A DNA stretch of 56,928 bases from Gemmatimonadota bacterium (GTDB taxonomy: Bacteria > Gemmatimonadota > Gemmatimonadetes > Longimicrobiales > Gaopeijiaceae), in contig VXLT01000318.1 in assembly GCA_009841475.1 (NCBI GenBank), forward strand, positions 1 to 56,928, given 5' to 3'. Positions 3,611 through 31,563 of the stretch are shown here, in pieces (the first letter of the stretch is position 1; every line of letters begins with the position of its first letter). Under the pieces are notes generated by a model. It saw nothing but the letters and a program-made list of their open reading frames with translations, was not told the DNA's origin and made no database searches. A program made the translations under genes and the position numbers.

Positions 3611-4362
3611 TCGATCTGCACTGTCACCTCGACCTCTATAGCGATCCCGCCCAAATTACCGCCACCTGCAAGGACCGTGGTATCTATGTCCTGTCGGTTA
3701 CGACCACACCTTCTGCATGGGAAGGAACTGCGCGGCTGGCGCACGGGGCTGATAGGATCAGCACCGCAGTCGGACTGCATCCGCAACTGGCCCGCGCGCG
3801 GCACGCGGAATTGGAGATCTTCGACAGGCTTCTCCCGCTCACGCGGTACGTTGGGGAGGTTGGTCTGGACGGTGCTCCCGAGTTCCAACCCCATTGGGAC
3901 ATCCAACTCGCAGTCTTCAACCATGTTCTCAAGGCCTGCTCGAACGCGGGAGGACGCATCCTATCGATCCACAGCAGGCGGGCCACCGCCGCCGTGTTAG
4001 GTCGCCTTCAGGCCTACCGCGATGCGGGGATCCCCGTGCTACACTGGTTCTCAGGTTCACGTCGCGACCTCGAATGCGCCATCGACCTTGGATGCTGGTT
4101 CAGTGTGGGCCCTGCTATGCTCCGTAGCAGGAACGGGCGTTTCCTTGCCGCACTCATGCCACGCGACCGGGTCCTGACGGAGTCGGATGGTCCGTTTGCT
4201 CAAGACAAGGGGACGCCACTGATGCCGTGGCACGTCGACCGAGCGGTTCACATCCTCGGCGAGCTCTGGTCGGTCTCGGCTGCGCAGGCACAGCAGACTA
4301 TCCGTCGCAATCTCCGAGCACTTACGATGCTCGTCCCAGACCTGCGGTCGGCGCCTAGGTAG
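3607..4362 (+). CDS. qatD: TatD-family metal-dependent hydrolase/DNase (QatD)
   Basis: N-terminus MIDLHCHLDLY is the TatD HxH metal motif. Also SIHSR, LHWFSG and ESDGPF. The GTG start overlaps the qatC stop (GTGATGTGA). Confidence 0.8.
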   Translation: MIDLHCHLDLYSDPAQITATCKDRGIYVLSVTTTPSAWEGTARLAHGADRISTAVGLHPQLARARHAELEIFDRLLPLTRYVGEVGLDGAPEFQPHWDIQLAVFNHVLKACSNAGGRILSIHSRRATAAVLGRLQAYRDAGIPVLHWFSGSRRDLECAIDLGCWFSVGPAMLRSRNGRFLAALMPRDRVLTESDGPFAQDKGTPLMPWHVDRAVHILGELWSVSAAQAQQTIRRNLRALTMLVPDLRSAPR

Positions 4363-4999: not shown

Positions 5000-5920
5000 T
5001 CACTTTGCAACCTCCTCGCGCTCCTCAGAGGCACCCATTCCATCATTCTCTAACCCCGCGGAGTCTCCTGGACCCACCCGTTCCACCGGTCCTACCCCCT
5101 TGAGCCGCTCTACCATCGCATCGCAGCACTCTTCTTCTCTGTCGCATGCGATAAACTCCATCCCGATCTCCCTCGCCGCCACCAAAGACGTTCCGGCTCC
5201 AGCAAACGGGTCCACTAGGAGCCCGCCCCTATCCCCGCTGATCCTCACCACTCGTCGCAGCAGTGGTAGAGGCAACTCGTTCCCGGGACGGCTCTTGTTC
5301 CTCCGGTGACGCACTGGACTGAGATCATCCCATACATCACTTAGGTTCAACCCTTCACTACTCACGTATTCCAAATAGCCGCCGTAGTCCTTCACCAGTC
5401 CACCACAATGCCGACAAGTTGCCGGAGGAATCTTCGGCCGCCGAAACACGCGTGGTACACCTTTAGAATAATGTAAGAGTGCGTAATGCGCTGGATACAA
5501 GCGGCCCCCGTATGGATAGCTTCCCTTCATCGACACAGCAATCCAGTGACAGAAATCAAGCACACCCTCGAGCATACCTCCGATACGAATCGCCCACGCT
5601 GGTAGATGATATACGTACAACGCTCCTCCTGGGCGCAACACTCGCACGCTCTCCTCCACCATGGACGAAAGCAACTCTAGGTACTCCTCCTCCTCAAGTT
5701 GATCACCGCTCCGCGGACTACTTCCGTATCGCTTCCCTAGGTTGAACGGTGGATCCAGAAACACTACATCGGCACTGCCGTCTCGTACGGTCGACATGAA
5801 ATCCCTCGCGTCCACCGAGAAAATCAAGCCATCCCTTAGCTCTCTATGTGGCATGACTCCCTTGTTCCGTAGCGCCTCCAGCGCACGACGCGGCAGCTCA
5901 TCCACTTCGACATCTCTCAT
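5000..5920 (-). CDS. Beta-class N6-adenine/N4-cytosine DNA methyltransferase
   Basis: Catalytic motif IV is near the N-terminus (VVFLDPPFNLGKRYG). SAM-binding motif I is C-terminal (LLVDPFAGAGTSLVAAREIG). Its start overlaps the stop of the upstream gene by 4 nt. Confidence 0.85.
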   Translation of the reverse strand: MRDVEVDELPRRALEALRNKGVMPHRELRDGLIFSVDARDFMSTVRDGSADVVFLDPPFNLGKRYGSSPRSGDQLEEEEYLELLSSMVEESVRVLRPGGALYVYHLPAWAIRIGGMLEGVLDFCHWIAVSMKGSYPYGGRLYPAHYALLHYSKGVPRVFRRPKIPPATCRHCGGLVKDYGGYLEYVSSEGLNLSDVWDDLSPVRHRRNKSRPGNELPLPLLRRVVRISGDRGGLLVDPFAGAGTSLVAAREIGMEFIACDREEECCDAMVERLKGVGPVERVGPGDSAGLENDGMGASEEREEVAK

Positions 5921-6885
5921 GCTTTGCCAAGACTCCCATCGCTTGCAATTTGTGTGAAGTTCGAAAAAATCTCCCGTAGCGCCTTGCGATACCCTGCATC
6001 AGGTGTGGAGATCAACGACCCGGCTGGTATGAACTCCAATATCCAAGCTGCCATCGGGGCGTTAGGCGGCGTCCCGTAGCGAAAGTTGTGCTTGGTCACC
6101 AATCGCCAGCCCAAGTTTTGGACCACTTGTGCAATCTTCTTTGGCACAAACACCATCAAGAACCGTTGCTGTTCTACGCGATCCAAGTCTTTGAAGTCGA
6201 TTGTGTTTGCTGCCACGAGGCGCTCCACAAAGTCTTTGGTTAGCGCATTGGTGGCGCGCACGCGAAACTCGTCGTCGCGACCGAGGTTTTCTCGCATGAA
6301 TGCCTGGGCTGACTCGGCCACCTGGACGGGCCATGGAATCGTCCCGTTTAATGTGAGGCATAGAGTCCACTGCAGCGGTTGCGGGCCCGCATGGATCTCA
6401 AGAAGTTTCCGGATCACCTCGATGACTGGAAAGACCACCAACCCACCCGCAGACTGCGCGATGAGCCCCGTGTTGAGATCCAGATTGACGACGCGCGCCC
6501 GAAAGAGGCGACGGTCCTTCTTTGCGGGCCAGTTAAACTGACTTTGCCACGCTAGGAGGTTTTCGACCGTGCCTTCTATGATCTTCATGCCAGGAAACTG
6601 TTGGATCAGTTCCGCAACGGCCATCCCGTTACGTTCAATGCAGACGACTCGGAATTGTTGATCCTCGGCGATGGCACCGCTCTCCGTCAGAGCGAGCAAG
6701 CCTTGATCGATGAGCAACCGAACATCATACGCTGCCGGGCCTGGAAGGGTAAGAAACAGAGGATCAGTATCCTCTGGATACCGTTCAGAATAGGCCTTAG
6801 CCTCTTCCAACCAAAACTCCCGCATCACCTCCTTCTCCGGACGCAGCTCCGACATCGCTTCGTGAACCGGCTGTCGACCCTTCAC
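5917..6885 (-). CDS. Hypothetical 322-aa protein, middle gene of the GHKL-X-MTase operon
   Basis: ORF is overlap-coupled at both ends (6882-6885 and 5917-5920). No motif recognised. FLTLPGPAAYD...VVCIERN...VVNLDLN is only vaguely Rossmann/MTase-like. Confidence 0.6.
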   Translation of the reverse strand: MKGRQPVHEAMSELRPEKEVMREFWLEEAKAYSERYPEDTDPLFLTLPGPAAYDVRLLIDQGLLALTESGAIAEDQQFRVVCIERNGMAVAELIQQFPGMKIIEGTVENLLAWQSQFNWPAKKDRRLFRARVVNLDLNTGLIAQSAGGLVVFPVIEVIRKLLEIHAGPQPLQWTLCLTLNGTIPWPVQVAESAQAFMRENLGRDDEFRVRATNALTKDFVERLVAANTIDFKDLDRVEQQRFLMVFVPKKIAQVVQNLGWRLVTKHNFRYGTPPNAPMAAWILEFIPAGSLISTPDAGYRKALREIFSNFTQIASDGSLGKA

Positions 6886-8378
6886 TTCCGCAACCGCTCG
6901 GTAAGTCGCTTGACGAAACGGGCCAGAACCGGCTTCGGTAAGACCTCTTCGGCAACTCCAATTACGATATCGTACAGCTGGCTAACTGAGTACTTCCTCG
7001 TCAACCTAACCGCCCAGGTGTCACTCCCAGCCTCATCCCGCCACGTTTCCTTGACCTCCTCCATGGCTTGTGGGGCCACCGCTGTCCGGTCAGCAACAAC
7101 GCGTTCAATCTGCCGCATCTCGCCCTCGGCCCGATACACGCGGCGTGCCGTGGCGCCTGCGCCGTACAGTTCCCGTCTTACGTCTTTCAGGAAGCGAGAC
7201 ATGAATTCATGCAGGGCTTTTCGCAGTTCGACGTACGCCGGATGAACATCGCGGAGAGTGCTTCGGTCGATATTCATCGCGTCTTCAAGTTCGTCGTTTG
7301 CCCACACCTCTCCGCTAACCCATGTCTTGAACAACGGTCCTTCCGACGCCGGGAATCCCCAATATGTCTTGTCGTACTCCCCAACGGCGGCGTGTCGAAT
7401 GCGAACCAAGACCCCTTGCAATTCCTCAGGCTGAATTCGGCCATGTTGAGCATAGAAATAGCCTCGAGCCGCCACCCGGTCGCCACGGTGCTCGAACGTT
7501 CTCGTCAGGGTTCGCTTGTCTCCCGGCCGCAGAACGATCGGCTTTCGGACATCCGTACCGTCGTACTTGAGCGCCAGATTCAAAGTGTCCGCCTCCACTG
7601 AGAACTCTTCCAGTCCGTCAGCCAGTACGGCCTCTGGAGCCCAAGCAGGGGCATAAGCGACCGGCACATTGAGACCGATTCGCAACATCGTCTGCGAATA
7701 TGAATCTAGGTCGGTCCATGAACGGAGCTTTGGGTCTGCAAGAGCATCAGCTATCGATTCCGGCGATTTTCCATAAAGCGATCCCGGCTGGTGTCGCGCG
7801 CCCTCTCCGGCCAAGAGATCCCTTGCCTCACCGCGGATCTCCTTAAGGACGAGAGTAGTGTGATGATCGTTTGGATGGGCAGATAGGATCTCACCCATAT
7901 AATCAGCTTTGGCGAAGTCACCGCCGTCCCGCCTACGCTTGTCAGGATCCGTTCTCATCATCCTGAAGTTGATAGTGACATGCAGAAGGTCTTTACTGTT
8001 GATCTGTGTCGAGTAGATCTCGAGTTCCTCGCACAACTCGTTCGCGGCAATAAAGCCAATGCCTATTCGGCCGATCTTGGGTCGGCCACTTGTCGTCGTG
8101 TCTGAGTTGTCGCGCTTGCGTGACTCGGCGATTCGACTGAAGTGGGCCTCGAACTCCTCTCGTGAGAATCCCGTGCCATCATCTTGGACGATGATCCGGT
8201 CCGCGTCCGGCTTGACCGATACATGAACGTTGAGCGCATCCGCATCGTAGGCGTTATTGATCAATTCTTTCAGACACGCGGCAGGCGACTTGTAGATGCC
8301 GGAGCTAAGGTGGTCCACGATACGCGACGCCACCTTGATCTCGCCCTTGAATCCTTCGGTTTCTTGTGCCATGGTCAC
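6882..8378 (-). CDS. GHKL (HATPase_c/MORC-like) ATPase
   Basis: Bergerat-fold motifs: N box LKELINNAYDADA, G1 VQDDGTGFS, G2 GRPKIGRIGIGFIAA. There is no HisKA or other kinase context. It is the first gene of a three-gene overlapping operon. Confidence 0.8.
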   Translation of the reverse strand: MTMAQETEGFKGEIKVASRIVDHLSSGIYKSPAACLKELINNAYDADALNVHVSVKPDADRIIVQDDGTGFSREEFEAHFSRIAESRKRDNSDTTTSGRPKIGRIGIGFIAANELCEELEIYSTQINSKDLLHVTINFRMMRTDPDKRRRDGGDFAKADYMGEILSAHPNDHHTTLVLKEIRGEARDLLAGEGARHQPGSLYGKSPESIADALADPKLRSWTDLDSYSQTMLRIGLNVPVAYAPAWAPEAVLADGLEEFSVEADTLNLALKYDGTDVRKPIVLRPGDKRTLTRTFEHRGDRVAARGYFYAQHGRIQPEELQGVLVRIRHAAVGEYDKTYWGFPASEGPLFKTWVSGEVWANDELEDAMNIDRSTLRDVHPAYVELRKALHEFMSRFLKDVRRELYGAGATARRVYRAEGEMRQIERVVADRTAVAPQAMEEVKETWRDEAGSDTWAVRLTRKYSVSQLYDIVIGVAEEVLPKPVLARFVKRLTERLRK

Positions 8379-8769
8379 CCGCTTCGCGACGAACTTCTGA
8401 CCCGAACGATCATGGACAAGCGTGCTCCTGTTCGGACCTCGGATGCGCGCGCCGCTAGGTGCGCCCTTGACCTGCTGTCTTTCCGCCTACGCGGGTCGGC
8501 CTGGCACGTCTCGGTCCTCCACGACCTCATCTTCCTATGGCCTCCCGAATTGTAGGTCGCCGAGCACGAACGGCTCTGGTCCCTGCGCTCCGGAGCAGGG
8601 AACACCGCACGCGCTGCGAGTTCCACCCTCGGCGCCCTCCGGCTTCCAGTAACAGGATCCACGGGTTGTTCACGCCGGAGAGAACGGCTTGACGACATGG
8701 CCCGCCGTGCCCGGCCGTCGATGCCTGGGCGAAATCGTCTCGTCGCACCCGTTCGGTCCCAAGGTGAAC

Positions 8770-8961
8770 TCAGCCGCTTCCGGGTTTGTTCTTCGAGGGG
8801 TCAACCAAGGTGTAGGTCGAGCCACGCACGGTCGTCGGTGGTAGCGGTTTCCCCTTCACCGCTGTGAGCTCGCGACCCTTGCCGCCCCGGGGATCGATTT
8901 GCTGATACTGACCGGAAGCGGGTGCCTCCGTACCCGGCGTCCAACCACTCGTTGTGGCCAT
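8770..8961 (-). CDS. YjzC-like small protein (63 aa)
   Basis: Internal ATG at 8961 is preceded by an AAGGAG RBS (reverse complement of ctcctttc). Sequence MATTSGWTPGTEAPASGQYQQIDPRGGKGRELTAVKGKPLPPTTVRGSTYTLVD fits the YjzC pattern G..AP.SG.Y....RGG....T...G...PPT. Confidence 0.55.
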   Translation of the reverse strand: MATTSGWTPGTEAPASGQYQQIDPRGGKGRELTAVKGKPLPPTTVRGSTYTLVDPSKNKPGSG

Positions 8962-10839
8962 CGTTGCTCCTTTCTCCCATGCACGGCGTTCGGGCGGGTG
9001 CAGCCCGCCGTGAACCTCGCAATGTAACACCATCCGGTCTGCGGATCCCGAATCGCGCCACTGAGCCCTGGCCGAGAGCTTGCGGGCCGTGCGCCCGGCG
9101 GACGTCTCATGAACGGAGAAACCGCGTGGGGTCAGGCCCGAGGAACGGATCCAAGAATCTTCTCCGCAACCGGTCGGCTTCCCACGCTGTGCTAGGGTCC
9201 CCGCAACTGTAGTCGACGCCGAGCTGGTTGAAGACACAGGTTGGGGTCGGTGCCGGGGGTCCCCCGATGCCCACGCCCATTCGTTTCAGGCCGCCAGAAT
9301 CACCTCACGCTGCACAGCCAACCTAAACGGAGGGCGTGAATCCCGGCAAGGAATCGTCTAAGTTCAACCAGGACTGCACGATCTGCCGTTCGTGCCGTGA
9401 GGTGCTGTACGGGGCTATCGTGCTCCAATAGCGTGAAAGCCGGGTCAATCAGCGGGAGTTCGGCAGGAACCGTCGACGCTACGCTGTCCTTCACATGGGT
9501 TCGGTTTCGCCGACACGAAGGAACGATGCCGTGGGGTTTTGTCCACGGGCTAGAGAAACTCGCATAGGAAGCGACGCGTTCCGGATGACTGGTTCGGTTT
9601 GCTCCGAATTGACGCAGGTCATGGAGGCGGCGAGGTAACGGGCTCGTAGCTCCTCGATCCTCGAGCCTGGAAGCCCCTTTCCTCCACGGTCGCAGATGAC
9701 CGCCTCGCGGTGAGGCCGGGTAGATTCCTCCGTAGACCACGGGATCACGCCCGAGACGTGAGAGTATCCGCCCTCGAAGTCGTCCTCAGTCGGACTCTCG
9801 GTCTTCGGCACGTGTACGTAGAGGCCACCTTCCGGGATCCCCGGTCTCGAAGTGCGGGCCGTCCACCGAGCCCAACCGCACCCAAAACGGTTCGGCATAG
9901 ACCGCGTGGACCGTCGTCCCCGCGCCCGTGGTGACCTCCCGGACTTCGAATCGACATTCCGGCTGGCCGGAGCGGCGGCGGGACGGCCACGACCAGCGCG
10001 GTGATTGAGTAGGCAAGTGAGCGCTTCACTGGGTGTACCTCCAGTCTCAGGGACAACGGTCGCCGGTTCCCTTCCTCTATGCTACCCGGATCCGGACTGA
10101 GGGCGCGAGCGCCGCCCTCCTTCACCGGTCGCGCCTTCGGCTACGGCCAGTATCGCCGCCGTCGGCTACATCGTCCTTTTTGCGCACCGCCTACGGACGC
10201 GACGACGCTGGAGGCGGCCTCGCGGATCGAGGCGCAGACCTGGGAGGGTCTCCCGAAGCTGGACCCGGAAACGCCCGGGTAAGGGCTCGAACCACTATTG
10301 AGAGCATTCGCAGGACCCGGAGGCCCGGATCACGAAGATCAAGCACGGCTGGACTCATCTGGCGCAGGAGGTGGACGTGGACACTGGAGCGGCGGTTGCC
10401 ACCACCGTGCAGACGATGGTCGGCGCCGACACGGCCTCGCTGCCGGTGAAGCTGGACGGGGCGGAGCGGCGGCTGGCGGAGACAGGGACGAGGGGGCCAC
10501 CACTCGACCCGGACCACAACGGACCAAAGAAGCGGGGGTAGCAAAGCTAAAGTGAGCGAACCCGACCGGGGCGGTCGCAGACGGGAGGATTCTCGAGGGG
10601 AGCCGAGCTATCATCCCAGCTTGGGCCACCTTACACTCGCGTGGCGTAACGCGAGTCGCGATCTTGGTCGCTGGCGGCAGATCCGTGCGTGCCCCGGGAG
10701 GAACCCACATCCGGGCTCACCCCCGCCCCTTCAAGCGGTCCCCCTTGCCCCGGTTGCCCAAGTGATCATACGATGCACGTGTGACTGGAAGGAACATCCT
10801 ACCCGTACGAACCCGCATTCCCGAGATTGGGAGGACGAC

Positions 10840-12687: not shown

Positions 12688-13764
12688 TCAAAGGGAAAGG
12701 TCAAAGACAGCGACGAAGGGCGCGTGATCAGATTCCGGGTACTTCATGTCGACAGCGAACGGCAGACTCTCGTCGTGCAGACCTTCGTTGTGAATCGCCA
12801 CGCAACACAAGTGCGCCAACAACGGTTTCGACACCAGTATATGGTCCAAGAGGTTGCCTTCTCCGTGATGCAAGTGAGTGAACCTGAGCGACTCGGGCAC
12901 CATCTCACTGCAGGCAATCATGACGCGCTTTCTTAGCGCGGGATTGCCTGTATTCTCAACCCGTCCGCAGATGGCCTCGATCGGCACTTCTCCGGGCTCG
13001 GCGTTGAGGTCCCCACACACCAGCACTTTCGCATCTGGTTCGTCGTCGAAGATAGTGTCCAAAAGTACTCTTGTTTCCAGCGCCTGGCCGACCCGCTTTA
13101 TCGACGAAAGAAAGTAGCCTTCTGCCCATCCGGCTGCGGAACGCCACAACCACCATTGCTCTTCGTCGATCTGGCCCTTTATCTTCGACGGCAATCGCGA
13201 TTTGAGATGTAGGTTTATGATATGTAGCTTATGCTTCTGTTTCCCCGAGTCTACGGTAATCGTCGCATGAAGAATCGGGCGTTCCCAACTAATCATCGCA
13301 TTCGGTTGCTCGCCCTCCTCTGCCTCTTCAGCTTTCTTCTCGGTGACCGGCACATACATCAGTTTGTCAATCCACTTGTTCCTGTACTGACTGCACGAAT
13401 CAAAGGGGAAACGCGAGAGGATCACCAAGTTGCGTTTTGCACGCGGAACCCCTTCGTGGTCGGGAAGCGACGTCCAATACGGATGATAGTTCTCGTAGAT
13501 GGTTGTCTTTAGCAGCTCGTTGAGGGCACCCAGTTCTCTCTTCGGGTTGTCCTCAGTATGTCCATCTAAGTTCTCAGCATGGACTTCCTGCAAACACAGG
13601 ACATCGGCCCGGAGTCGAGCTAGTACTCTTCTGAGTTCGTCCTGCCTAGCGTGCACCCCAGGATTGTTTTTCCGATCCTCGAAGGTGAGGTTCTCGATGT
13701 TGAAGGTCGCGATTCGGAGCATTCGGTCGTCCTCAGCGTTAGCGTGATAACCATGCTGTGTCAT
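12688..13764 (-). CDS. Endonuclease/exonuclease/phosphatase (EEP) family protein
   Basis: EEP motifs LRIATFNIENL, DVLCLQEVH, VLVCGDLNAEPGE and C-terminal PESDHAPFVAVFDL. Lower-GC codon usage. Confidence 0.85.
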   Translation of the reverse strand: MTQHGYHANAEDDRMLRIATFNIENLTFEDRKNNPGVHARQDELRRVLARLRADVLCLQEVHAENLDGHTEDNPKRELGALNELLKTTIYENYHPYWTSLPDHEGVPRAKRNLVILSRFPFDSCSQYRNKWIDKLMYVPVTEKKAEEAEEGEQPNAMISWERPILHATITVDSGKQKHKLHIINLHLKSRLPSKIKGQIDEEQWWLWRSAAGWAEGYFLSSIKRVGQALETRVLLDTIFDDEPDAKVLVCGDLNAEPGEVPIEAICGRVENTGNPALRKRVMIACSEMVPESLRFTHLHHGEGNLLDHILVSKPLLAHLCCVAIHNEGLHDESLPFAVDMKYPESDHAPFVAVFDLSL

Positions 13765-15226: not shown

Positions 15227-16237
15227 CTAGTCGCTACGGCTCCACACGGTTACAAGCGTGTCAGCCGCCACGACAAGATGGTCTCGGGTCACCGATATGG
15301 CCGTCACGGACGGTGTCGGGATTGGGATGGAGTATTGGTACTGGCCTCGCTCAGCTTCGTACACATCGACCAAATACGTGCCCTCGCCGTGGGCAAGCAC
15401 ATACACCGTGTCCCGGCGGGCGACGAGGCCGAATGACGCCCCAATCCGGTCTTCCGGCGCGATCATGAAAGCACCGTCCTGGCTGACCGGAGTTGGGAAG
15501 GGCTGCTCTACGATCGTGCTCCCCAGATAGCGCCGCGCACCATCGTCAGCGGACCAACGGCCGAGGAATCCGCCGTAGGCACCGCTGTAGAAGATACTCG
15601 ATGCGTTCGCGTCGACGAATCCCCAGAGCGCAATCGCGCTCTCAAATCCCTGATCGTCTGCCACCCGGCCGAAGTCGTTCACGACGGTGCCGCTACGGGT
15701 CACCCGCCGAAACAGCAGGCTGTCCAACACCATGAGAACCACATCGTCGTCCGGGGTGAGTTCGAAGGCTGTAGCGTTCCCTGGCACTCTGATCGTCTCT
15801 ACCAACTCGGCCGCCTGATCGAACACCTGGATTCGGCCTTGCGCCGGGTCCAGCGTCCAAACCCGACCCGTCGCATCCACTTCGAAATCGCTGAGGGAGA
15901 GGAATTCCCCAGGACCCTGGCCTTCGCCAGTCCCGTAATCACGGATGAAATCACCCTCAAGAGTGAACTGCCGGACAAGGGGCGCACCGAAGTCCATGAC
16001 ATAGACGTGATCCTCCTCTGCGGATACAGCGAGCCTCATTGGGTTCGCCAGCCCCCACGGCACTGCTCCCAGGTAGGCTACTGCCGTTTCAGGCGGGTCC
16101 ACAAGGACGCGCTCGGAGGAACGCGTCGCCACCTCCTCGGACGCCGCCTCGTCGCGTTCACACGCACCGAGGATCGCCCAACACGCTGCTGCAGTCGCCA
16201 CGGCGCAGCGCGCCCCGGATGCGACGCCCGTAGACAT
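15227..16237 (-). CDS. Six-bladed beta-propeller (NHL-like) lipoprotein, paralog 1
   Basis: Lipobox AILGAC. Family signature DYGTGEGQGPGEF. The DVYE and TVW repeat character is shared with the five other paralogs. Confidence 0.75.
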   Translation of the reverse strand: MSTGVASGARCAVATAAACWAILGACERDEAASEEVATRSSERVLVDPPETAVAYLGAVPWGLANPMRLAVSAEEDHVYVMDFGAPLVRQFTLEGDFIRDYGTGEGQGPGEFLSLSDFEVDATGRVWTLDPAQGRIQVFDQAAELVETIRVPGNATAFELTPDDDVVLMVLDSLLFRRVTRSGTVVNDFGRVADDQGFESAIALWGFVDANASSIFYSGAYGGFLGRWSADDGARRYLGSTIVEQPFPTPVSQDGAFMIAPEDRIGASFGLVARRDTVYVLAHGEGTYLVDVYEAERGQYQYSIPIPTPSVTAISVTRDHLVVAADTLVTVWSRSD

Positions 16238-16249
16238 CGTCCCGCTTTG

Positions 16250-16552
16250 TTACTTCTTCGGCGGCTCGACGACGGGGGCCGGACCCAAGCAAGTGACGTT
16301 GTGCCCGTCAACGACTGCGTTCGCACACGGATGGAGCCCAGGTGCGCAGAGCTTCGGGCAGAGGGGCCCATCATCCTCGCTCGCGCAGAGACCGGTCGTC
16401 AGTGGCGATCCGGCCGGTAGCGTTGGGAGGAAGGCCGCAGCCGCAGCAACGGCAACGCCGACGGCGGCGACGCGGAACGGTCGGCGGTCGGTTGTGAACA
16501 GCGCCAAGCACGTAGCCGTGAAGGCGCGAACGGTGTGGATAACGGTATTCAT
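16250..16552 (-). CDS. Small Cys-rich secreted protein (100 aa)
   Basis: Internal ATG at 16552 follows an AAGAGGAGGA RBS. It has a hydrophobic leader (AAVGVAVAAAAAF). The mature part, LCASEDDGPLCPKLCAPGLHPCANAVVDGHNVTC, has 5 Cys. It ends 13 nt before the propeller gene start. Confidence 0.6.
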   Translation of the reverse strand: MNTVIHTVRAFTATCLALFTTDRRPFRVAAVGVAVAAAAAFLPTLPAGSPLTTGLCASEDDGPLCPKLCAPGLHPCANAVVDGHNVTCLGPAPVVEPPKK

Positions 16553-16586
16553 CGTGGCTGTCCTCCTCTTGGACGTGGGGTGCGAT

Positions 16587-16682
16587 CTTCGATGGGAATC
16601 ACCCACCGAACTCGTAGTCACAGTATGGCGACTGAGTGTGCTCTCGTCAAGACGGATATTCCATGAGGATCGCGAATTGTGA
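16587..16682 (-). promoter_or_regulatory. 96-nt promoter/leader module, copy A (-35 TTGACG at 16650-16645, -10 CATACT at 16627-16622)
   Basis: Its reverse complement aligns with 19621-19716. The 64 nt from TTGAC onward have 5 mismatches. The upstream 32 nt share TCACAATT and CATGGA blocks. Confidence 0.65.
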
Positions 16683-16800
16683 AGAATACTGCCCCATTTA
16701 CGCCTGAATCCCATTCTAGCGTATGCCTTGTACATGTCTATTTGTTCTGTTATTGTGTTGTCACCGTGACGTGACAAACTCGACCTAGGAGGGCTGACCG

Positions 16801-19110
16801 TTGAACGATTCCCGCGAACCGGCTCCAGAGCGCGAAGGCCGGGAGGACCGCGAATCCGCCGTGATCGCAGCGATCCTGCGCGTCGGCGCGAGCCTCGACC
16901 TCGACACCGTGCTGCGCGAGGCCCTTGAGGGCGCCCGCGCACTCACCGGCGCGCGTTACGGCGCCATCTACGCCCCGACCGTTCCGGACAGCCCCGTCAA
17001 CTTCGTCACCTCCGGCCTGACGCCGGAGGAACACGGAACGCTGGCCGCGTGGCCCGACGGGCTCCGGCTCTTCGAACACCTGCGCGACCTTGAGGCGCCG
17101 CGGAGACTGCCGGATCTGGCGGCCTTCGCCCGCTCGCTCGGATGCTCGCCGCTCCCGCTCCCGTGCCGGGCCTTGCTGGCCACGCCGATGCGTCACAGGG
17201 ACACGCCCGAGGGCGGCTTCTTCCTTGCGGAGAAGGAGAGCGGGTTCTCGGACGGAGACGAGGCGGCGCTGGCGCTGTTCGCGCAGCAGGCGGCAGCGGC
17301 CATCGCCCACGCCCGCGCGCACAGCGACGAGCGGCGCGCCCGGGCCAAAATGGAGGCGCTGGTCGAGACCTCGCCTGTCGGTGTCGTCGTGTTCGACACC
17401 ATGACCGGAGCGCCACTGTCGTTCAACCGGGAGGCGAAGCGCATCGTGGACGGGCTCCTCACGCCGGAGCGCCCCATCGAGCGGCTTCCGGAGGCGGTGA
17501 CCTGCCGGCGGGGCGACGGAAGCGAGGTCACACTCGCCGATCTCGGCACCGCCGAGCGGGTGCGCGCCGAGGAGGTGGAACTCTCGGTGCCCGGAGGGCG
17601 GAGCGTCCGCACGCTGCTCGACGCGACCCCGATCCGCTCCCCGGAGGGCTCGGTCGAGACGGTGGTGGTGACCATCCAGGATCTGGCCCCGTTCGAAGCG
17701 CTGGCGCGGTCGCGGGCGGAGTTCCTGGAGCTGGTGAGCCATGAACTCAGGGCGCCGCTTGCCGCCATCAAGGGCTCGGCGACGACGGCGCTGGGAGACT
17801 CCCGCGAGCCCGACCGGGCGGAGCTGCGCCAGTTCCTGCGCATCGTCGAGGAGCAGGCCGACCGCATGGACGGGCTGATCGCCGATCTGATGGACGCCGG
17901 GCGCATCGGTGCGGGTACGCTGCCGGTGGACGCGGCGCCCGAGGAGGTCGGCGGCCTCGTGGAGCGGGCGCGCGGGGCGTTCGCCGGCCGGGGCGGGAGG
18001 CACTCCGTCGTCGTCGACCTGCCGCCGGACCTTCCCGCGGTGATGGCCGACGGGCGGCGCGTCGTTCAGGTGCTCGACAACCTGCTTGCGAACGCAGCGC
18101 GGCACTCGCCGGAGACCTCGCCCATCCGGGTGGCGGCGGCGCACGACGAGGCGCATGTCTGGATCTCGGTTGCCGACGAGGGCGACGGGTTGGCACCGGA
18201 CGCGCTGCTCCACCTGTTCCGCCGCCACACGGGCGCTGATCCCCGGGGCCGGGGGTCCGGCCTGGGGCTTGTCATATGCAAGGGGCTGGTGGAGGCGCAC
18301 GGCGGGCGCATCCGGGCCGAGAGCGGCGGGCCGGGCCGGGGCACGCGCGTCGTGTTCACGCTTCCCGTGATGGAGGCGGAGCCGGATGCCTTGGCGAGCG
18401 CCTCCGAGCCGCCGCGGCGGGCGCGGGAGCGGACACCCATCCTCGTGGTGGACGACGATCCCAATTCGTTGCGGCAGGTGCGCGGCGCGCTCGCGGCGGC
18501 GGGCTACGCCCCCGTCGTCACCGCGGAACCGGGCAAGGTGTCCCGTCTTGTCGAGACCCGCAAGCCTCGTCTGGTCCTGCTGGACCTCGTGCTGCCCGGC
18601 ACCGACGGCATCAGGCTGATGGAAACGCTCCCGGCACTCGCCGGACTGCCGGTGATCCTCATCTCCGCGTACGGGCGCGGCGACACCGTCGCGAGGGCGC
18701 TGGAGGCCGGTGCCGCCGACTACATCGTCAAGCCGTTCTCGCCGGCCGAACTCGTGGCGCGCGTCAAGCTGGCGTTGCGCAGGCGTGCCGGACCCGGGCG
18801 CGAGCCCTTCATGCTCGGCGACCTCGCCATCGACTACGAGAAGCGCCGCGTGACCGTGGCCGGCCGTCCGGTGCGCCTCACCGCCACCGAATACGGGCTG
18901 CTGCGCGCCCTTTCGCTCAACGCGGGCGGCGTGACGACCTACGACGCCCTCTGGCGCCAGGTCTGGGGAGAGCACGCACCCAGCAGCGCGCAGCCGGTGC
19001 GCACTGCCGTGAAAAAGCTCCGCCGAAAGCTCGGCGACCAGGCGAGGAAGCCGACTTACATCTTCACCGAGCGCGGCGTCGGCTATCGCATGCCGACAGC
19101 GTCCCATTAG
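16801..19110 (+). CDS. Single-polypeptide hybrid two-component regulator: GAF-PAS-HisKA-HATPase_c-REC-OmpR/PhoB winged helix
   Basis: GAF-like region (ILRVGASLDLDTVLREALEGARALTGARYGAI). PAS (SPVGVVVFDTMTGAPLSFNREAKRIV). H-box FLELVSHELRAPLAAI. G2 GSGLGLVICKGLVEAHGGRI. REC ILVVDDDP...LVLLDLVLPGTDG. Trans_reg_C LTATEYGLLRAL...YIFTERGVGYRM. TTG start after a TAGGAGGG RBS. Confidence 0.85.
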   Translation: MNDSREPAPEREGREDRESAVIAAILRVGASLDLDTVLREALEGARALTGARYGAIYAPTVPDSPVNFVTSGLTPEEHGTLAAWPDGLRLFEHLRDLEAPRRLPDLAAFARSLGCSPLPLPCRALLATPMRHRDTPEGGFFLAEKESGFSDGDEAALALFAQQAAAAIAHARAHSDERRARAKMEALVETSPVGVVVFDTMTGAPLSFNREAKRIVDGLLTPERPIERLPEAVTCRRGDGSEVTLADLGTAERVRAEEVELSVPGGRSVRTLLDATPIRSPEGSVETVVVTIQDLAPFEALARSRAEFLELVSHELRAPLAAIKGSATTALGDSREPDRAELRQFLRIVEEQADRMDGLIADLMDAGRIGAGTLPVDAAPEEVGGLVERARGAFAGRGGRHSVVVDLPPDLPAVMADGRRVVQVLDNLLANAARHSPETSPIRVAAAHDEAHVWISVADEGDGLAPDALLHLFRRHTGADPRGRGSGLGLVICKGLVEAHGGRIRAESGGPGRGTRVVFTLPVMEAEPDALASASEPPRRARERTPILVVDDDPNSLRQVRGALAAAGYAPVVTAEPGKVSRLVETRKPRLVLLDLVLPGTDGIRLMETLPALAGLPVILISAYGRGDTVARALEAGAADYIVKPFSPAELVARVKLALRRRAGPGREPFMLGDLAIDYEKRRVTVAGRPVRLTATEYGLLRALSLNAGGVTTYDALWRQVWGEHAPSSAQPVRTAVKKLRRKLGDQARKPTYIFTERGVGYRMPTASH

Positions 19111-19620
19111 GGTGCGCGCGTCCTTCGGCCTGGAGTTTCCCCGGTCCCGCGCGAACCCGGGAGCCCGCCCGGATTGAACCCGGTGATACGAGGCAGCCGG
19201 ATCCGACCGACAGCCAAACCCCATGGGGCGGGGGACGGAAGAAGTCCGTGTGAACCCCATGGTCATCGGCGATTGTATTCCGGCGCGAACCCCCGGATCG
19301 TAGCGCGTTCCTAGGTGTTTCGCCAAGCCTTGTCGCTGTCTTCGGCGGCTTGGAGCGCCGCTTAACCGACGATCCCCGGTCCGGGATTCGGACGAGCCGA
19401 CGGCAGCGGCGTCCGATGGCCCGGATACTGGTCCAGACGTTCTGGGACTACTTGGGACACTTGGGATGTTGGCCTACGGCTCCTAGCGGTGGGAATCGTT
19501 CAACGGTCCGCTCCTTCCTTCGATCCCATATGGTCACTATAAGGACATGATTACATGTCACCTTGGCCATATTATCGTCATATGAGACAACTCAGGCTGG
19601 GCGTCAGTGAGCAACAACCG

Positions 19621-19716
19621 TCACAATTGCCGCTTTCCCATGGACATCAGGCTTGACCCGAGCACATTCAGTCGCCATACTGTGACTACGAGTTCGGTGG
19701 GTGATTCCCGCCGAAG
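19621..19716 (+). promoter_or_regulatory. 96-nt promoter/leader module, copy B (-35 TTGACC at 19653-19658, -10 CATACT at 19676-19681)
   Basis: Inverted copy of 16587-16682. It sits about 50 nt upstream of the 19766 ATG, which follows a TAAGGAGG RBS. Confidence 0.65.
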
Positions 19717-19765
19717 CCCCAAGGGGTTCGGATGTTCCACACTCAATTGAGCTAAGGAGGCCCAA

Positions 19766-20284
19766 ATGAGTAACGCAGCAAGAATCATGTGGATCGCGCT
19801 CATCGCGGTCGTAGCGTCGCTGGCGACGACGGGTATCGCCAGCGCCCAAGACGGAAAACCCAAGCTCCCGGAGAAGTGTGCCACGTGCAGCGACTGCGCG
19901 AACTGCGACCGCGCTGCTTGGGGAACCACCGACTGTGACTACGAAGGCGAAGATCCGGAAGACCCGGATAATGGCTGCTGCCGACTCTTCGGCAATGCCT
20001 GCAATCCGACTTTCGCCCTGAGCCTCGAAGCCGAGGACATGGAGTTTGTCGCGGTGGAGGACGGAAGCGAGGGTGTGGCCGTGGCGAGGCTGAAAGGCGA
20101 TGTGTTCGGAACGTGGACCTGCGAGGACGGGGACCTCAAGGTTGCGTACCGCGCGCTCGCCGACGGTACGTTTCACAGCCTGAGCGGGGACGAGTTCGAG
20201 GCATATCGGCGTGAGTACTCGCTGAGCCAGTATGTCGCCTTGCTCAGTGACCGTCTTCGTGAGGCGGCGCAAGAAGCGGGTTGA
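19766..20284 (+). CDS. Cys-rich secreted protein (172 aa)
   Basis: Signal peptide MWIALIAVVASLATTGIASAQ. Cys cluster KCATCSDCANCDRAAWGTTDCDYEG...NGCCRLFGNACNP. Strong RBS. Its stop overlaps the start of the propeller gene. Confidence 0.7.
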   Translation: MSNAARIMWIALIAVVASLATTGIASAQDGKPKLPEKCATCSDCANCDRAAWGTTDCDYEGEDPEDPDNGCCRLFGNACNPTFALSLEAEDMEFVAVEDGSEGVAVARLKGDVFGTWTCEDGDLKVAYRALADGTFHSLSGDEFEAYRREYSLSQYVALLSDRLREAAQEAG

Positions 20285-21369
20285 CAACCGTGTTACAGCA
20301 GCGAATCCGGCGAGCTTCGGGGCTCGCCGGGTTCGCGTTACTGGCCCTCAACCTTCAGCTAGGTGCGCAGGCCACGGATCGCCTAACTGTGACCGAGGTA
20401 TGGGTTGCTGACGGCAACACACGGCTCGAAGAGCTCACGAGGATTACGGGAGCAGCCGAGAGCCCGCTGGGGACAGTGTGGATCGCGAGTTCCAGACCAG
20501 GAATGGTGCTGGCTGTGGCCCCGAACGGAGACAAGAGTGACGATTTCCTTGTCGCTCGCGACGGAGACGGTCCTGGTGAATTGCGGGGACCGGGTCGGGT
20601 TGATGTCATGCCGGACGGCAACATGGCAGTCCACGACATCGGACGTAACGCGGTGGAAGTCTACACTCCTGCCGGGGAGCCGGTTCGACGGGTGATTATG
20701 CCGATCAGCGTGGGATGGATTAAAGGATTCGCCGCGCTGCCAGGTGGCGGCTTCGTATTGAGCGGAGGGGTGTTCGGCAATGGCCACGCGATCCATCAAT
20801 TCGACGAACTGGGAGGGTATCTTCATAGCTGGGGTGAAGCCATGGAGGCCGAAGACATGATGGCCCGGTTCGTCGGGACGGGTGGGGCGCTCGACGTGCT
20901 GCCGGACGGATCCCTACTCTACTCGCGGGCGGCGCCCCACGAGATCGTACGGTACCAACTACCCACCTCTGGATCGGTCGCCCCGAGCGGTCGTACGATC
21001 GTTTCTATTGGTGGCCTCCTTGAGTCACCGGGAGACGATGTGCTCCTCAAGACGACTGACGAGAACGGGGTTTCCTATACCACGTTCAGGGTCTGGTATC
21101 CGCAGTCTAGGGGTGTGTTCCTAATGGCCGACGGGGCGATCTTGAACGTGATCACCCACTCGAACGAGGATCCAGAGTTGCGCCACACCATCTGGCAGCT
21201 CTTCAGTCCCTCCGGCGACCTGGAGGCCGAAGCTAGGACGGACGGGGTAATGTACCAGCCTTGGTTCCAGTGCTCCAACGGTGACATCCTCGCCTCGCGG
21301 CACGATGTATTGGGCGTAACATCGCTCGTCAGATTGAGGGTCAACTTCAACGGAGGATCGTCCGGCTAA
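20281..21369 (+). CDS. Six-bladed beta-propeller protein, paralog 2 (secreted)
   Basis: Signal-like N-terminus GFALLALNLQLGAQA. Signature ARDGDGPGELRGPG. TTG start overlaps the upstream stop. Confidence 0.7.
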   Translation: MTTVLQQRIRRASGLAGFALLALNLQLGAQATDRLTVTEVWVADGNTRLEELTRITGAAESPLGTVWIASSRPGMVLAVAPNGDKSDDFLVARDGDGPGELRGPGRVDVMPDGNMAVHDIGRNAVEVYTPAGEPVRRVIMPISVGWIKGFAALPGGGFVLSGGVFGNGHAIHQFDELGGYLHSWGEAMEAEDMMARFVGTGGALDVLPDGSLLYSRAAPHEIVRYQLPTSGSVAPSGRTIVSIGGLLESPGDDVLLKTTDENGVSYTTFRVWYPQSRGVFLMADGAILNVITHSNEDPELRHTIWQLFSPSGDLEAEARTDGVMYQPWFQCSNGDILASRHDVLGVTSLVRLRVNFNGGSSG

Positions 21370-21616
21370 CGCCGCAAAGCGGCGTGGCAAGCGCCTTCCC
21401 AGGGCCCGCCGCGCACAGTCCGAAGCGAGTCTGAATCGGGCGCATGTAGACGCTTCGGCAGATCCGCAGGAGCCCCGCGCCCGAACGCACGAGACGAGAG
21501 AGCGACCGGGCCACCGCCGACCGGGCGGCAACGCGCAGGAGGTCGTCCGCCTGTATCGGCGTGGCCTCCGGCTGGGCCTCGGCACACTCCATAGTCCGTT
21601 CCGGTAGGCTGTTCAT
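21347..21616 (-). CDS. AbiEi/DUF6088-like winged-helix fragment (89 aa), probably truncated
   Basis: Starts at the internal ATG at 21616. IQADDLLRVAARSAVARSLSRLVRSGAGLLRICRSVYMRP matches the AbiEi N-terminal pattern (..DL......V...LSRLVK.G.L.R...G.Y..P). The 3' end overlaps the convergent propeller gene by 23 nt. Confidence 0.35.
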   Translation of the reverse strand: MNSLPERTMECAEAQPEATPIQADDLLRVAARSAVARSLSRLVRSGAGLLRICRSVYMRPIQTRFGLCAAGPGKALATPLCGVSRTILR

Positions 21617-22027
21617 CGCGTCCGTTTCTCCGTCGCAGGTCCGCTCGCTCAACCCGACATCAACACCCGGCGCGGACGGGGGCGACCACGGACGAGGATG
21701 TCGTGGCCGTGCCACGCAACCAAGTCTCCGGCTGGGCACGCGCGCTGACCGCGCCCACCCGAGGATCCCCCTCTTCCCGGTCCTCTGGTTCCCGTCCATC
21801 CGGCCGTGTGCCGTTTCGCCAATGGGTCGGGCCTCGGCCGAGCTTCGCATCCCCCACCACCGGAACCTCGGCTTCCGCTCCTGTGCGGGGGTGCTCCACC
21901 ACCGCGTTGGCGGCGGGCTCCGGCGGCTCCCGGACAACGTCGGATAACTATAGACGCCATAGACACTTAGGAGATTTCCTATGGGTTGACGGTGGGAAGA
22001 AAAGTCCTTCACCATTGGGGGACACCG

Positions 22028-22543
22028 ATGACACTTGAGCAGGAGTTCAACTCACGGGTGAATGCGTTTCTGAGGCGAACGGGTGTGAGTCCCACGGCGC
22101 TCGGTCTGAAGGCGCTGGGCGACCCGAACCTGATGCGCCAGATCCGCCGCGGCCGATCGCCGTCACTGCGGACGGCGGACCGGCTCCTAGCGTACATCGC
22201 CGCCTACGAGCTGGCCGGAGGCGGTGCCCGGGATCCGCCCATCCGGTCCCGCAGGCCTCGGTTCGCGACGCGGGCGATGAGAACGAGGGAAGGCAGGGCG
22301 ATGACCACGAGCGTGACGGAGGAAAGAACGACCCCGACGACTCGACTCCTGCGGGTCTCGGAGGTACAGGCCCTAACGGGCTTGGCACGGAGCACAATCT
22401 ACGCGTGGTCGGCCCAAAGGCGCTTCCCCCCGGCGATCCGGTTGAGTCCGCGAGCGGTGCGCTGGATCGAGGCAGACGTGGAGGAGTGGCTCCGCGAGCG
22501 GGTCGCGGACGGCCGGGGCGAGGCCAAGGCCGTCGCCCACTGA
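22028..22543 (+). CDS. AlpA-family HTH regulator with an N-terminal extension
   Basis: C-terminal LLRVSEVQALTGLARSTIYAWSAQRRFPPAIRLSPRAVRWIEADVEEWL is the AlpA/MerR-like phage regulator motif. The alternative start at MTTSVTEE would give an AlpA-only product. Confidence 0.65.
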   Translation: MTLEQEFNSRVNAFLRRTGVSPTALGLKALGDPNLMRQIRRGRSPSLRTADRLLAYIAAYELAGGGARDPPIRSRRPRFATRAMRTREGRAMTTSVTEERTTPTTRLLRVSEVQALTGLARSTIYAWSAQRRFPPAIRLSPRAVRWIEADVEEWLRERVADGRGEAKAVAH

Positions 22544-30333: not shown

Positions 30334-31271
30334 TCGCGCATCTCAAGGGGCGCGAGAAGGCGCTCAGACCCTTCGGCTGGGCGGGGAAGCAAGCCGAGTG
30401 GATCGCGCTCGTGTGCCTCCACAGCGGCGTGTTCACCCGCGCCCAGTGGGCACGGTTCAATGACGCGCACCCGGAACAGATCCGGCGCGGCGTGCTCGGG
30501 CTGCTCGCCCAGCGAGTCGCCAGCGAGGAGACGGAGCCGGGCCTGGCAGGCATCGGCCGCGTCTGCCGGATCTTCGCCCGCCCGGTCTACCGCGCGCTCG
30601 GGGCCGAGCACATCCGCCACCGCCGCGGCGCCTCGCCCGAGGTGCTGATGCGCCGTCTGCTCTCCCTCGACTACGTGATCGAGCACGCGGATCTGCCCTG
30701 GCTCCCGACGGAGCAGGAGAAGGTCGCGGCGTTCGAGGCGCTTGGGCTAGATCGCTCGCTCCTGCCCGTGCGCGTGTACCGCGGCGCCGCCGGGCATACC
30801 CGCCGCTACTTCCCCGTCAAGCTGCCCGTCGCGCTCGACCCGGCACGTGCCCTGTTCGTCTACGCCGACCCCGGCCACAACACCGCCACCGCGCTTCGCT
30901 CCTGGGGCCGGGCGCACCGCGGTCTGTGGCAGGCGCTCGCAAAGCTGGACCTGTCCGTCGAGGTCGTGGCCGTGGCCCGCACCTCGCGCGAACTCGAGCG
31001 GGCCCGGCGCGTGATCGGCGGCTGGGCCGAGCCCGCCGGCCCCGGAGACCGCGACCCCGGACCAGGGATCCCGGAGGAACTCGCCCGGATCGAACGTGCC
31101 ATCGTCGAGGGTGCGGTCGATGTCCTCGACGAGTTCGGCGGCCTCCAGGCCGCCCTAAAGCGCAGCATCGAACTTGAAGCCCAGGCGCGCCGGCAGGAGG
31201 CCGGGCGCGGGTCGATCCACCGCGCCGCCGAATGGCGCACCGCGCGCCTCAACGGGGTCCGTTTCCGGTGA
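30330..31271 (+). CDS. Hypothetical protein, possibly replication-relaxation (Replic_Relax)-like
   Basis: N-terminal wHTH-like segment (QAEWIALVCLHSGVFTRAQWARF) and a later LFVYADPG block. Weak resemblance only. ATGA overlap with trbF. Confidence 0.35.
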   Translation: MIAHLKGREKALRPFGWAGKQAEWIALVCLHSGVFTRAQWARFNDAHPEQIRRGVLGLLAQRVASEETEPGLAGIGRVCRIFARPVYRALGAEHIRHRRGASPEVLMRRLLSLDYVIEHADLPWLPTEQEKVAAFEALGLDRSLLPVRVYRGAAGHTRRYFPVKLPVALDPARALFVYADPGHNTATALRSWGRAHRGLWQALAKLDLSVEVVAVARTSRELERARRVIGGWAEPAGPGDRDPGPGIPEELARIERAIVEGAVDVLDEFGGLQAALKRSIELEAQARRQEAGRGSIHRAAEWRTARLNGVRFR

Positions 31272-31563
31272 CCGGCCTGCGTGCTATGCCGCACTGCGGC
31301 GTGAAAACGACGCGGGGGGTCGTTTCACGACACAGCGTCCCGTCGGTTCACGCCGGACGTTCCGCCTATACGCTTGCGCGGTATTGTGTTGCGGCCTCGC
31401 GGCCCGCCCGTTCGTTGCCGGACGGGCCGCATCGGCCGTGGCGGGAGCGACCCCCCTCGCCGAAGGCTCGGTACGGCATAGCGGCGAGTGTGTTTTCACA
31501 CCCTCGCCCCCATGCCTGGGTCGCTCCCGCACCATCGATCCCTCCGGGAAGGGTGTCCGGTCC
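31272..31563 (+). promoter_or_regulatory. Hairpin-rich intergenic region, candidate oriT
   Basis: Hairpin GTGAAAACGAC-gcggggg-GTCGTTTCAC at 31301-31328. CGGCCCG...CGGGCCG around 31405-31435. GGCGAGTGTGTTTTCACACCCTCGCC around 31483-31508. The 8-mer GTGAAAAC (or its complement) occurs twice exactly (31301, 31492), plus a one-base-shorter complement copy (CGTTTCAC) in the 3' arm of the first hairpin. Confidence 0.3.

Follow-up and report, generated by a model that had tools for sequence, protein, structure and literature searches.

The question raised by this locus is why two nearly identical non-coding sequences should stand in inverted orientation on either side of a single regulatory gene, each of them upstream of a gene for a small cysteine-rich protein that is followed by a gene for a beta-propeller. 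The locus lies in a stretch of 56,928 nucleotides (the window hereafter), which is contig VXLT01000318.1 of the Gemmatimonadota assembly GCA_009841475.1. The regulatory gene codes for a fused two-component regulator, and the two flanking gene pairs, or cassettes, are termed cysA-propA (left) and cysB-propB (right). With slightly more confidence than doubt, we propose that the locus is a duplicated target promoter linked to the regulator; co-regulation of the two cassettes by the regulator sandwiched between them is plausible from their positions and from the conserved architecture.

By repeat search, the two arms are found at 16587-16682 (minus strand) and 19621-19716 (plus strand), are 96 nt long and 81% complementary, are separated by 2938 nt and form the longest inverted repeat of the region. 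From TTGAC outward (core64 hereafter), the copies agree at 59 of 64 positions, and their five differences gather at the edges around a 42-nt perfect block, TCAGTCGCCATACTGTGACTACGAGTTCGGTGGGTGATTCCC; the probability of a run of at least 42, given 5 differences in 64, is 0.02. This block occurs only twice in the window (16594-16635, minus strand, and 19668-19709, plus strand), even with three mismatches allowed, and not at all in 100 shuffles. Each copy is predicted to contain a sigma-70-like promoter (TTGACG or TTGACC, a 17-nt spacer and CATACT) with 9 of 12 consensus matches. Farther upstream, the block TCACAATT (TGTGAA on the plus strand) is the same in both copies, while CATGGA is present in both with an offset of 1 nt. 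An earlier note on this DNA, made from the letters alone, had claimed the inverted 96-nt copies with five differences in 64 nt, the common upstream blocks and the sigma-70-like promoter, and the reanalysis agrees with it on all of these. That note had also considered a generic dispersed repeat as a possible refutation, which receives no support from the searches: beyond the two copies in the window, an exact 35-mer of the core is absent from 185,579 species genomes, a core 22-mer is absent from the JGI metagenomes, two 22-mers are absent from IMG/VR (all exact-pattern scans) and the module has no blastn match in the plasmid collection.

The earlier note missed that the similarity between the left and right copies extends inward to about 245 nt, approximately 150 nt past the 96-nt arms. 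This inward homology ends in a block with 20 of 21 identical positions (16793-16813 versus 19491-19511), which comprises the Shine-Dalgarno (SD) sequence of the regulator, its TTG start codon and its first four codons. Since the repeat includes these features, the right copy is the stub of a second regulator control region. Some 360 nt of non-coding DNA separate the stop codon of the regulator from the right copy, and tblastn and blastn reveal no remnant of a second regulator in the spacer (19111-19490) besides this 5' stub. Followed outward, the identity between the copies is 41% at the 5' end of the regulator coding sequence, 95% in the SD/start block, 48% in the regulator promoter region, 59% in the upstream 32 nt, 92% in core64 and 29% beyond the core. 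In the inner halves, which offer 141 comparable positions, identity is 57% between the copies and 52-64% with the orthologous regions of other metagenome-assembled genomes (MAGs). The inner halves thus differ from one another as much as they do from other genomes, and the window copies are consequently not recent or simple duplicates. The outer segment is 82% identical between the copies (92% in the core), in contrast to 22-33% against relatives, and among the control regions compared the outer 64 nt appear to be common to the two window copies only. The alignments portray the repeat as a mosaic with an old inner half and an outer half that is either young or constrained. For the near-identity of the outer half, the best explanation is a tract of approximately 75-100 nt that arose by local copying or gene conversion and would later have been kept by selection.

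Comparison with related loci, referred to here by number (L001 onward), ties the module to the regulator. For regulators that are 82-86% identical to that of the window, the upstream 200 nt align to both window copies, including the regulator promoter, the SD sequence and the TGTGAA block. Measured from the regulator start codon, the outward-facing -10 element is at -179 in the left copy, -178 in the right copy, -174 in L017 and -168 in L031a; in L019, whose control region carries a 46-nt insert, an outward promoter-like site is found at -224. Given that the outward promoter occupies a position conserved in the family (-168 to -179), the module is linked to the regulator. The genes that the outward site faces encode proteins of 1200-1426 amino acids with leucine-rich repeats (LRR) and Big_2 domains in L017 and L018, an RTX-repeat protein and an outer-membrane protein in L036, and unknown proteins in L019 and L031, while in L027 a gene for a cadherin/He_PIG protein is found downstream of the regulator. 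The annotated genes beside the orthologous regulators (LRR and Big_2, RTX, outer-membrane and cadherin-like) are all predicted to be of secreted or surface types.

Whether the module is constrained was assessed between strains. Loci L001-L007 are 100% identical to the window and hence uninformative on variation, so that only L060, a locus from another sponge study that is 96% identical and spans window positions 18323-21382, is informative. Its differences amount to 37/359 in the spacer (10.3%), 7/109 in the AT-rich region and 6/32 in the upstream 32 nt, versus 1/64 in core64, 1/49 in the 5' untranslated region (UTR) and 0/42 in the SD/start stub. The single change in the core converts the right -35 element to the state of the left copy, TTGACG. 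Synonymous divergence from L060 is 0.076-0.10. Taken together, core and UTR differ at 2 of 113 positions versus 50 of 500 in the other non-coding DNA (Fisher p = 0.002). Core and UTR thus change below the neutral rate, so that, as judged from one strain pair, the module appears to be under selection and not merely young, in keeping with the tight non-coding conservation claimed earlier. The absence of change in all 42 positions of the stub (19470-19511), which codes for six residues at most, beside a spacer diverged by about 10%, is a separate observation.

Several results weigh against the proposed duplicated, regulator-linked promoter. Core64 is only 22-33% identical in the orthologous control regions despite winged-helix domains that are 83-94% identical. 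No cassette of a Cys-rich protein and a propeller is found beside the orthologous regulators in 22 genome and 3 metagenome loci, where the only cassette-like match is a weak propA-like one, 5 kb off, in L017. GTGAC/TGTGAC motifs are present in 6 of 7 control regions, but this is equalled by 7 of 200 shuffles and is marginal once shared ancestry is allowed for, and the constraint test covers a single pair of strains and a small number of sites. It may be that the regulator makes no contact with the core, and expression from the promoter could be constitutive. A plain duplicated promoter, in which a recent local duplication or gene conversion of about 75-100 nt spread an ordinary, possibly constitutive promoter and its leader with the regulator uninvolved, has to be weighed, and we give it a minor but appreciable probability. 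Such an origin would agree with an old inner and a young outer half, with differences gathered at the tract edges (p = 0.02), with the lack of the core in control regions of regulators whose DNA-binding domains are near-identical and with the cassettes of relatives, which work without this regulator. It leaves aside, however, that the outward promoter sits at the family-conserved site of the regulator control region and that the TGTGAA block of the family lies just upstream in both copies. Conservation between strains above the neutral expectation also speaks against it, although a constitutive promoter would be conserved as well. As to the operator, the winged helix of the window regulator shares 94% identity with its counterparts in L017 and L018 and 83-87% with those in L019 and L031, and the recognition helix PVRTAVKKLRRKL is the same in L017 and L031. 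Because the core is not conserved while the DNA-binding domain is, the 42-nt core is unlikely to be the operator itself; it is probably conserved as promoter and leader. Better candidates for the operator are the TGTGAA/TCACA block upstream of the -35 element and the GTGAC motifs. The former, in the upstream 32 nt of the module, is common to three relatives; the latter number four per 227-nt region versus 0.48 expected, and TGTGAC is the most widely common hexamer over the 7 control regions by k-mer sharing, marginally above shuffles. The shared operator targeted by the sandwiched regulator, as suggested in the earlier note, consequently keeps its positional link (-168 to -179) and loses the core, which is absent near the orthologues.

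Two further explanations concern the repeat as an RNA and as a mobile sequence. The conserved element could act as RNA, with a leader hairpin serving as a post-transcriptional control or stability element that coordinates both operons. Both copies can fold into a 9-bp hairpin (approximately +10 to +32), UUCGGUGGG-UGAUU-CCCRYCGAA, whose pairing survives two substitutions on the 3' side (G>A, C>U), and leader and UTR are conserved in L060. Transitions of this type, opposite U and G, invariably keep the bases paired, however, and two copies are too few for covariation. The fold z-scores of -1.3 to -1.9 are statistically indistinguishable from shuffles, Rfam gives no match at the gathering score across the whole window nor at E <= 1 over 16400-19900, and the element is absent from every other genome, metagenome and viral contig scanned. 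We consider this explanation quite unlikely, and neither Rfam nor the fold scores support the RNA-element option raised earlier. Less probable still, and in our judgement very unlikely, is that the repeats bound a mobile insertion cassette as its terminal inverted repeats, or that recombination between them inverts the 3.1-kb segment 16587-19716. It is true that the inverted repeats enclose one passenger gene with a GC content of 73% (GC3 0.89) versus about 63% in the flanking cassettes, that the regulator family is horizontally mobile and that in Nitrospinota-type loci the regulator is bracketed by direct repeats. Yet the repeat holds the SD sequence and start codon of the regulator and is homologous to the single-copy upstream regions of orthologues that have no downstream copy. 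Moreover, no target-site duplication is visible at the repeat ends, no further copies are found in the window or in the scanned genome, metagenome, viral and plasmid collections, no transposase, invertase or recombinase adjoins the repeats, and all five junction-spanning assemblies show one orientation (at the assembly level).

In the duplicated, regulator-linked promoter reading that we favor, the regulator travels horizontally with a bidirectional control region of approximately 200 nt, of which one promoter would drive the regulator and the other, about 175 nt from the start codon, would face outward and drive the adjacent gene. The window contains two inverted copies of this control region, the left one intact and the right one a stub from which the regulator gene is gone. 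The predicted outward promoter with a leader of about 45 nt, nearly the same in both copies, is joined to two unrelated-looking cassettes 25-50 nt ahead of their start codons. Upon an intracellular cue, the kinase would phosphorylate its own receiver, and the winged helix would then bind to family-conserved sites in both control regions, for which TGTGA(A/C) about 30 nt upstream of the -35 element and the GTGAC motifs are candidates. Both cassettes and the regulator itself would be co-regulated in consequence. The near-identity of the outer 64 nt would stem from local copying or gene conversion and would now be held by selection for promoter and leader function. The analysis shows the anatomy of the locus, its mosaic homology, the constraint between strains, the folds of the proteins and the horizontal mobility, while the transcription starts, the binding of the regulator and the co-regulation are what we infer. 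The features of the locus are listed in Table 1.

Table 1. Positions of the features of the locus and of the element that carries it (window coordinates)
Feature	Positions	Strand	Remarks
propA, NHL-type six-bladed beta-propeller (predicted), 336 aa, N-terminal lipobox-like AILGAC	15227-16237	-	Pfam DUF5128; NHL weak
cysA, 100 aa, hydrophobic RR-containing N-terminus, conserved 5-Cys C-terminal part	16250-16552	-	Open reading frame with SD
Native 5' UTR of cysA cassette	16553-16586	-	Module junction about 16577-16586; 88% DNA homology to L065-L072 ends at 16577
Left core64	16587-16650	-	-35 TTGACG 16650-16645; -10 CATACT 16627-16622; hairpin 16610-16588; perfect block 16594-16635
Left upstream 32 nt	16651-16682	-	TCACAATT and CATGGA; TGTGAA block common to L019, L031 and L058
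Regulator's own promoter region and SD, AT-rich	16683-16800	+	Promoter segment 58-71% identical to relatives
Fused two-component regulator: GAF, PAS, HisKA, HATPase_c, REC, OmpR/PhoB winged helix	16801-19110	+	Pfam, NCBIfam
Non-coding spacer	19111-19469		No gene remnant detected; 10.3% diverged from L060, neutral benchmark
Second-regulator stub: SD, TTG, AAC GAT TCC, stop after 6 codons	19470-19511	-	20/21 versus 16793-16813
Diverged copy of regulator promoter region	19512-19620	-	48% versus left copy, 60-64% versus relatives
Right upstream 32 nt, TCACAATT and CATGGA	19621-19652	+	Most variable segment versus L060 (6/32)
Right core64	19653-19716	+	-35 TTGACC 19653-19658; -10 CATACT 19676-19681; hairpin 19693-19715; perfect block 19668-19709
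Right 5' UTR	19717-19765	+	Cassette-native from about 19735 (alignment with L064); 1/49 difference in L060
cysB, predicted secreted protein, 172 aa, 9 invariant Cys (CxxCxxCxxC...C...CC...C plus 1)	19766-20284	+	Family alignment
propB, predicted secreted NHL-type six-bladed beta-propeller, 362 aa	20281-21369	+	Start overlaps cysB stop
AlpA-family regulator, starts block of type IV secretion system genes	21986-22543	+	Pfam; 69-71% DNA identity to cassette-adjacent AlpA of L065-L073
TrbC, VirB3, VirB4, VirB9, VirB10, VirB6	After AlpA to about 29.6 kb		Conjugative-element genes
Coupling protein	31174-33606		Conjugative-element gene
ArdC	34804-35853		Conjugative-element gene
Integrase	37219-38664		Chromosomal genes past integrase

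The only gene between the two copies had been described as a GAF-PAS-HK-REC-OmpR fusion, and the domain search confirms it. The kinase part matches HisKA (PF00512, 2.8e-14) and HATPase_c (PF02518, 2.7e-24), with the phospho-acceptor H314 in the motif SHELRAPL (residue 313); the receiver (PF00072, 3.1e-23) has its acidic pocket, the phospho-accepting D595 and the Lys, within the VVDDD, LLDLVLPG and VKPF motifs; and the output domain, Trans_reg_C (PF00486, 3.1e-19), occupies residues 688-764 of the same chain. With kinase, receiver and DNA-binding features all present, the protein is an intact single-polypeptide hybrid kinase-regulator. Hydropathy reveals no transmembrane (TM) segment in it, the maximum KD(19) of 1.61 lying within a charged GAF helix. 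Full-length relatives, 58-86% identical, are found in MAGs of Gemmatimonadota, Vicinamibacterales, Thalassobaculaceae, Nitrospinota, Acidobacteriota and Spirochaetia, with a partial match in a Tectimicrobiota MAG. These relatives (L017-L039, about 770 amino acids) come from MAGs that are assigned to at least six phyla and of which most carry names that point to sponges; so wide a spread at 58-86% identity clearly indicates horizontal transfer. The locus L031 has two convergent regulator copies, a plausible precursor of the window arrangement. On one Acidobacteriota chromosome (L025 and L026), two tandem copies of the regulator are 12.5 kb apart. A gene of the Exo_endo_phos family is found near the window regulator (12688-13764, minus strand), and the convergent regulators of L031 enclose another member of this Pfam family (8566-9393). 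In the Nitrospinota-type loci (L023, L024, L030, L032 and L038), the direct repeats that bracket the regulator are 235-370 nt long and 85-89% identical and are duplicates of the 3' end of the upstream alpha/beta-hydrolase gene (e.g., L032 5215-5469 and 8320-8574). These loci look as if a regulator-bearing unit of roughly 3.1 kb had inserted site-specifically at the end of the alpha/beta-hydrolase gene.

Both cassettes encode a small protein with a hydrophobic N-terminus, predicted to be secreted and Cys-rich, ahead of a propeller, as claimed before, and the further claim that the propellers are paralogous agrees with the hhalign comparison of their families (98.6%, E 5e-16); pairwise, propA and propB share 27% identity over 48 residues. 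Against the PDB, the propA family profile matches the NHL domains of Thin, TRIM2 and TRIM71 (E 1e-55 to 1e-65, best 6e-65) and that of propB matches NHL domains at E 4e-25. propB itself is too diverged for detection by any Pfam model. The AlphaFold2 model of propB (pLDDT 86, pTM 0.85) has the NHL domains of TRIM71, Thin and Brat as its top Foldseek matches (E 2e-11), and both propellers are accordingly assigned the NHL-type six-bladed fold. The homologues of cysA are 86% (L066) and 67% (L073) identical, with the mature region conserved. pN/pS is 0.38 for cysA and 0.26 for propA (versus L066), and 0.15 for cysB and 0.08 for propB (versus L060), so that all four cassette genes are under purifying selection. 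The cysB family comprises about 35 clusters among 1.84 billion representatives; cysB has no Pfam match, its profile matches no PDB chain and its AlphaFold2 model, built from a 2-sequence alignment, is of low confidence (pLDDT 42). Homologues of cysB and propB with overlapping stop and start codons are found in L008-L014 and L064, and those of cysA and propA in L065-L073. The Cys-rich protein and the NHL propeller form a rare, conserved and uncharacterised two-gene unit on integrative elements.

Some further observations concern these genes. Residues 80-143 of cysB match 23 tandem YTNEDG-type repeats of P0109, a T/D/E-rich protein of 5191 amino acids; this similarity probably reflects composition, although it could also point to a small beta-hairpin domain. 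Upstream of cysB, a seven-codon upstream open reading frame (MFHTQLS followed by a stop codon, 19732-19755, plus strand) ends within the cysB SD sequence; the sole UTR substitution of L060 (19746 A>G) leaves its peptide unchanged, and the frame is absent from L009 and L064. L015 (5372-13361), on a 4.8-Mb contig, has at least four propeller genes (a propB-type, two DUF5128 and one more), flanked by transposases, and several of them have small upstream open reading frames. In L061-L063, from samples of another study, a propB copy (e.g., L061 9724-10650) is 97-98% identical, has a 157-nt internal deletion, lacks cysB and is located in an unrelated chromosomal neighborhood (CoaE, Fur, arginase, sortilin-like); it is a copy that was transferred recently and has decayed. 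In the chromosomal part of the window, a third propeller gene of the DUF5128/NHL type (48767-49963, minus strand) has a PadR-like gene on one side and a BlaI/BlaR1-like pair on the other, with no small Cys-rich partner.

From its gene content, the locus is cargo of an integrative conjugative element (ICE) in a sponge-associated, Palauibacter-like Gemmatimonadota MAG. Several assemblies from a single study of sponge microbiomes contain identical sequence, as does MAG GCA_009844485.1, and relatives of the propellers are named Candidatus Palauibacter (Gemmatimonadota). The cassettes of the relatives adjoin integrases, transposases or AlpA and never this regulator, and by Smith-Waterman comparison with their native upstream regions, the module shows no similarity beyond shuffles upstream of these homologous cassettes. 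In L065-L072, AlpA is the immediate divergent neighbor of the cysA cassette; in the window, about 5.4 kb lie between cysA and AlpA, comprising module, regulator, module, cysB, propB and an open reading frame for an unknown protein. On the left, the cassette is homologous to L065-L072 (88% at the DNA level) up to 16577, 10 nt short of the module edge; on the right, homology of the cassette to L064 begins at about 19735. According to these breaks, each cassette retains 25-30 nt of its own UTR joined to the same module. The wiring of regulator and module to the cassettes thus appears specific to this lineage. To the left of the locus is defence-like cargo, consisting of a KAP-family NTPase (102-1472), a QueC-like protein (2330-3610), a TatD DNase (3607-4362), an N6/N4 DNA methylase (5000-5920), an unknown open reading frame and a HATPase_c_3 protein (6882-8378), followed by a region (8.4-11.1 kb) in which no open reading frame has the local codon bias.

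To our knowledge, how the "eukaryotic-like" and secreted proteins of sponge symbionts are controlled is essentially unknown, as these organisms are uncultured. With a single soluble sensor-regulator and two almost identical target promoters, each about 100 nt long, the locus offers a concrete handle that is testable in a heterologous host. It looks like a lineage-specific rewiring of genes of host-interaction type. A regulator shared across phyla (58-86%) and an outward site at the same distance in three close Gemmatimonadota relatives suggest that regulatory modules, and not only effectors, are exchanged. More speculatively, and rather improbably as it stands, the regulator and its 200-nt control region could be a mobile "plug-in" regulatory cassette among sponge symbionts of many phyla, one that places neighboring secreted or surface "eukaryotic-like" genes (LRR, cadherin-like, RTX, NHL propeller) under a common intracellular signal, and the window would show this process under way, the outward promoter having been copied to a second cassette carried by the ICE. 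The main value of the locus is in what it says on the regulation of symbiont surface and secreted proteins and on the mobility of regulators across phyla.

Among known systems, a small Cys-rich exported protein encoded beside a beta-propeller superficially resembles the small Cys-rich and propeller subunits of the quinoprotein amine dehydrogenases (MauA/MauB and QhpC/QhpB). This analogy was rejected, because the propellers are six-bladed NHL rather than seven-bladed, cysB has no PDB match and no gene for a MauG-like or radical-SAM maturase is found nearby. By profile and by fold, the window propellers resemble the NHL six-bladed propellers (the NHL domains of TRIM71, Brat and Thin, the PknD sensor and PAL); unlike these, they are predicted to be exported stand-alone proteins that are translationally coupled to a small Cys-rich partner. 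NHL, LRR and cadherin are classes listed as eukaryotic-like domains in sponge-symbiont genomics, and no enrichment of NHL was found in the symbiotic Actinobacteriota examined there (PMC11706023). The hybrid two-component systems (HTCS) of Bacteroides are described as a sensor, histidine kinase, receiver and DNA-binding output in one polypeptide encoded beside the genes that it controls (PMC11253607). The window regulator likewise combines sensor, kinase, receiver and DNA-binding output in one chain. It differs from the Bacteroides HTCS, which are membrane proteins that sense glycans in the periplasm and have an output domain of the AraC type, in its cytoplasmic GAF and PAS domains and its OmpR/PhoB winged helix; with no TM-like segment and an OmpR-type output, it was not assigned to the Bacteroides type. 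The best-scoring models for its receiver and Trans_reg_C output are MtrA, PhoB, RpaB and KdpE, but all of these matches are far under the equivalog cut-offs, so that the regulator is not an orthologue of any of them. Its predicted bidirectional control region with a target promoter is similar to that of divergent autoregulated systems of the OmpR/PhoB family, such as PhoB and MtrA, whereas its kinase, unlike theirs, is fused to the regulator. The locus is therefore of a kind already known, a two-component regulator, and the duplicated target promoters are its variant here.

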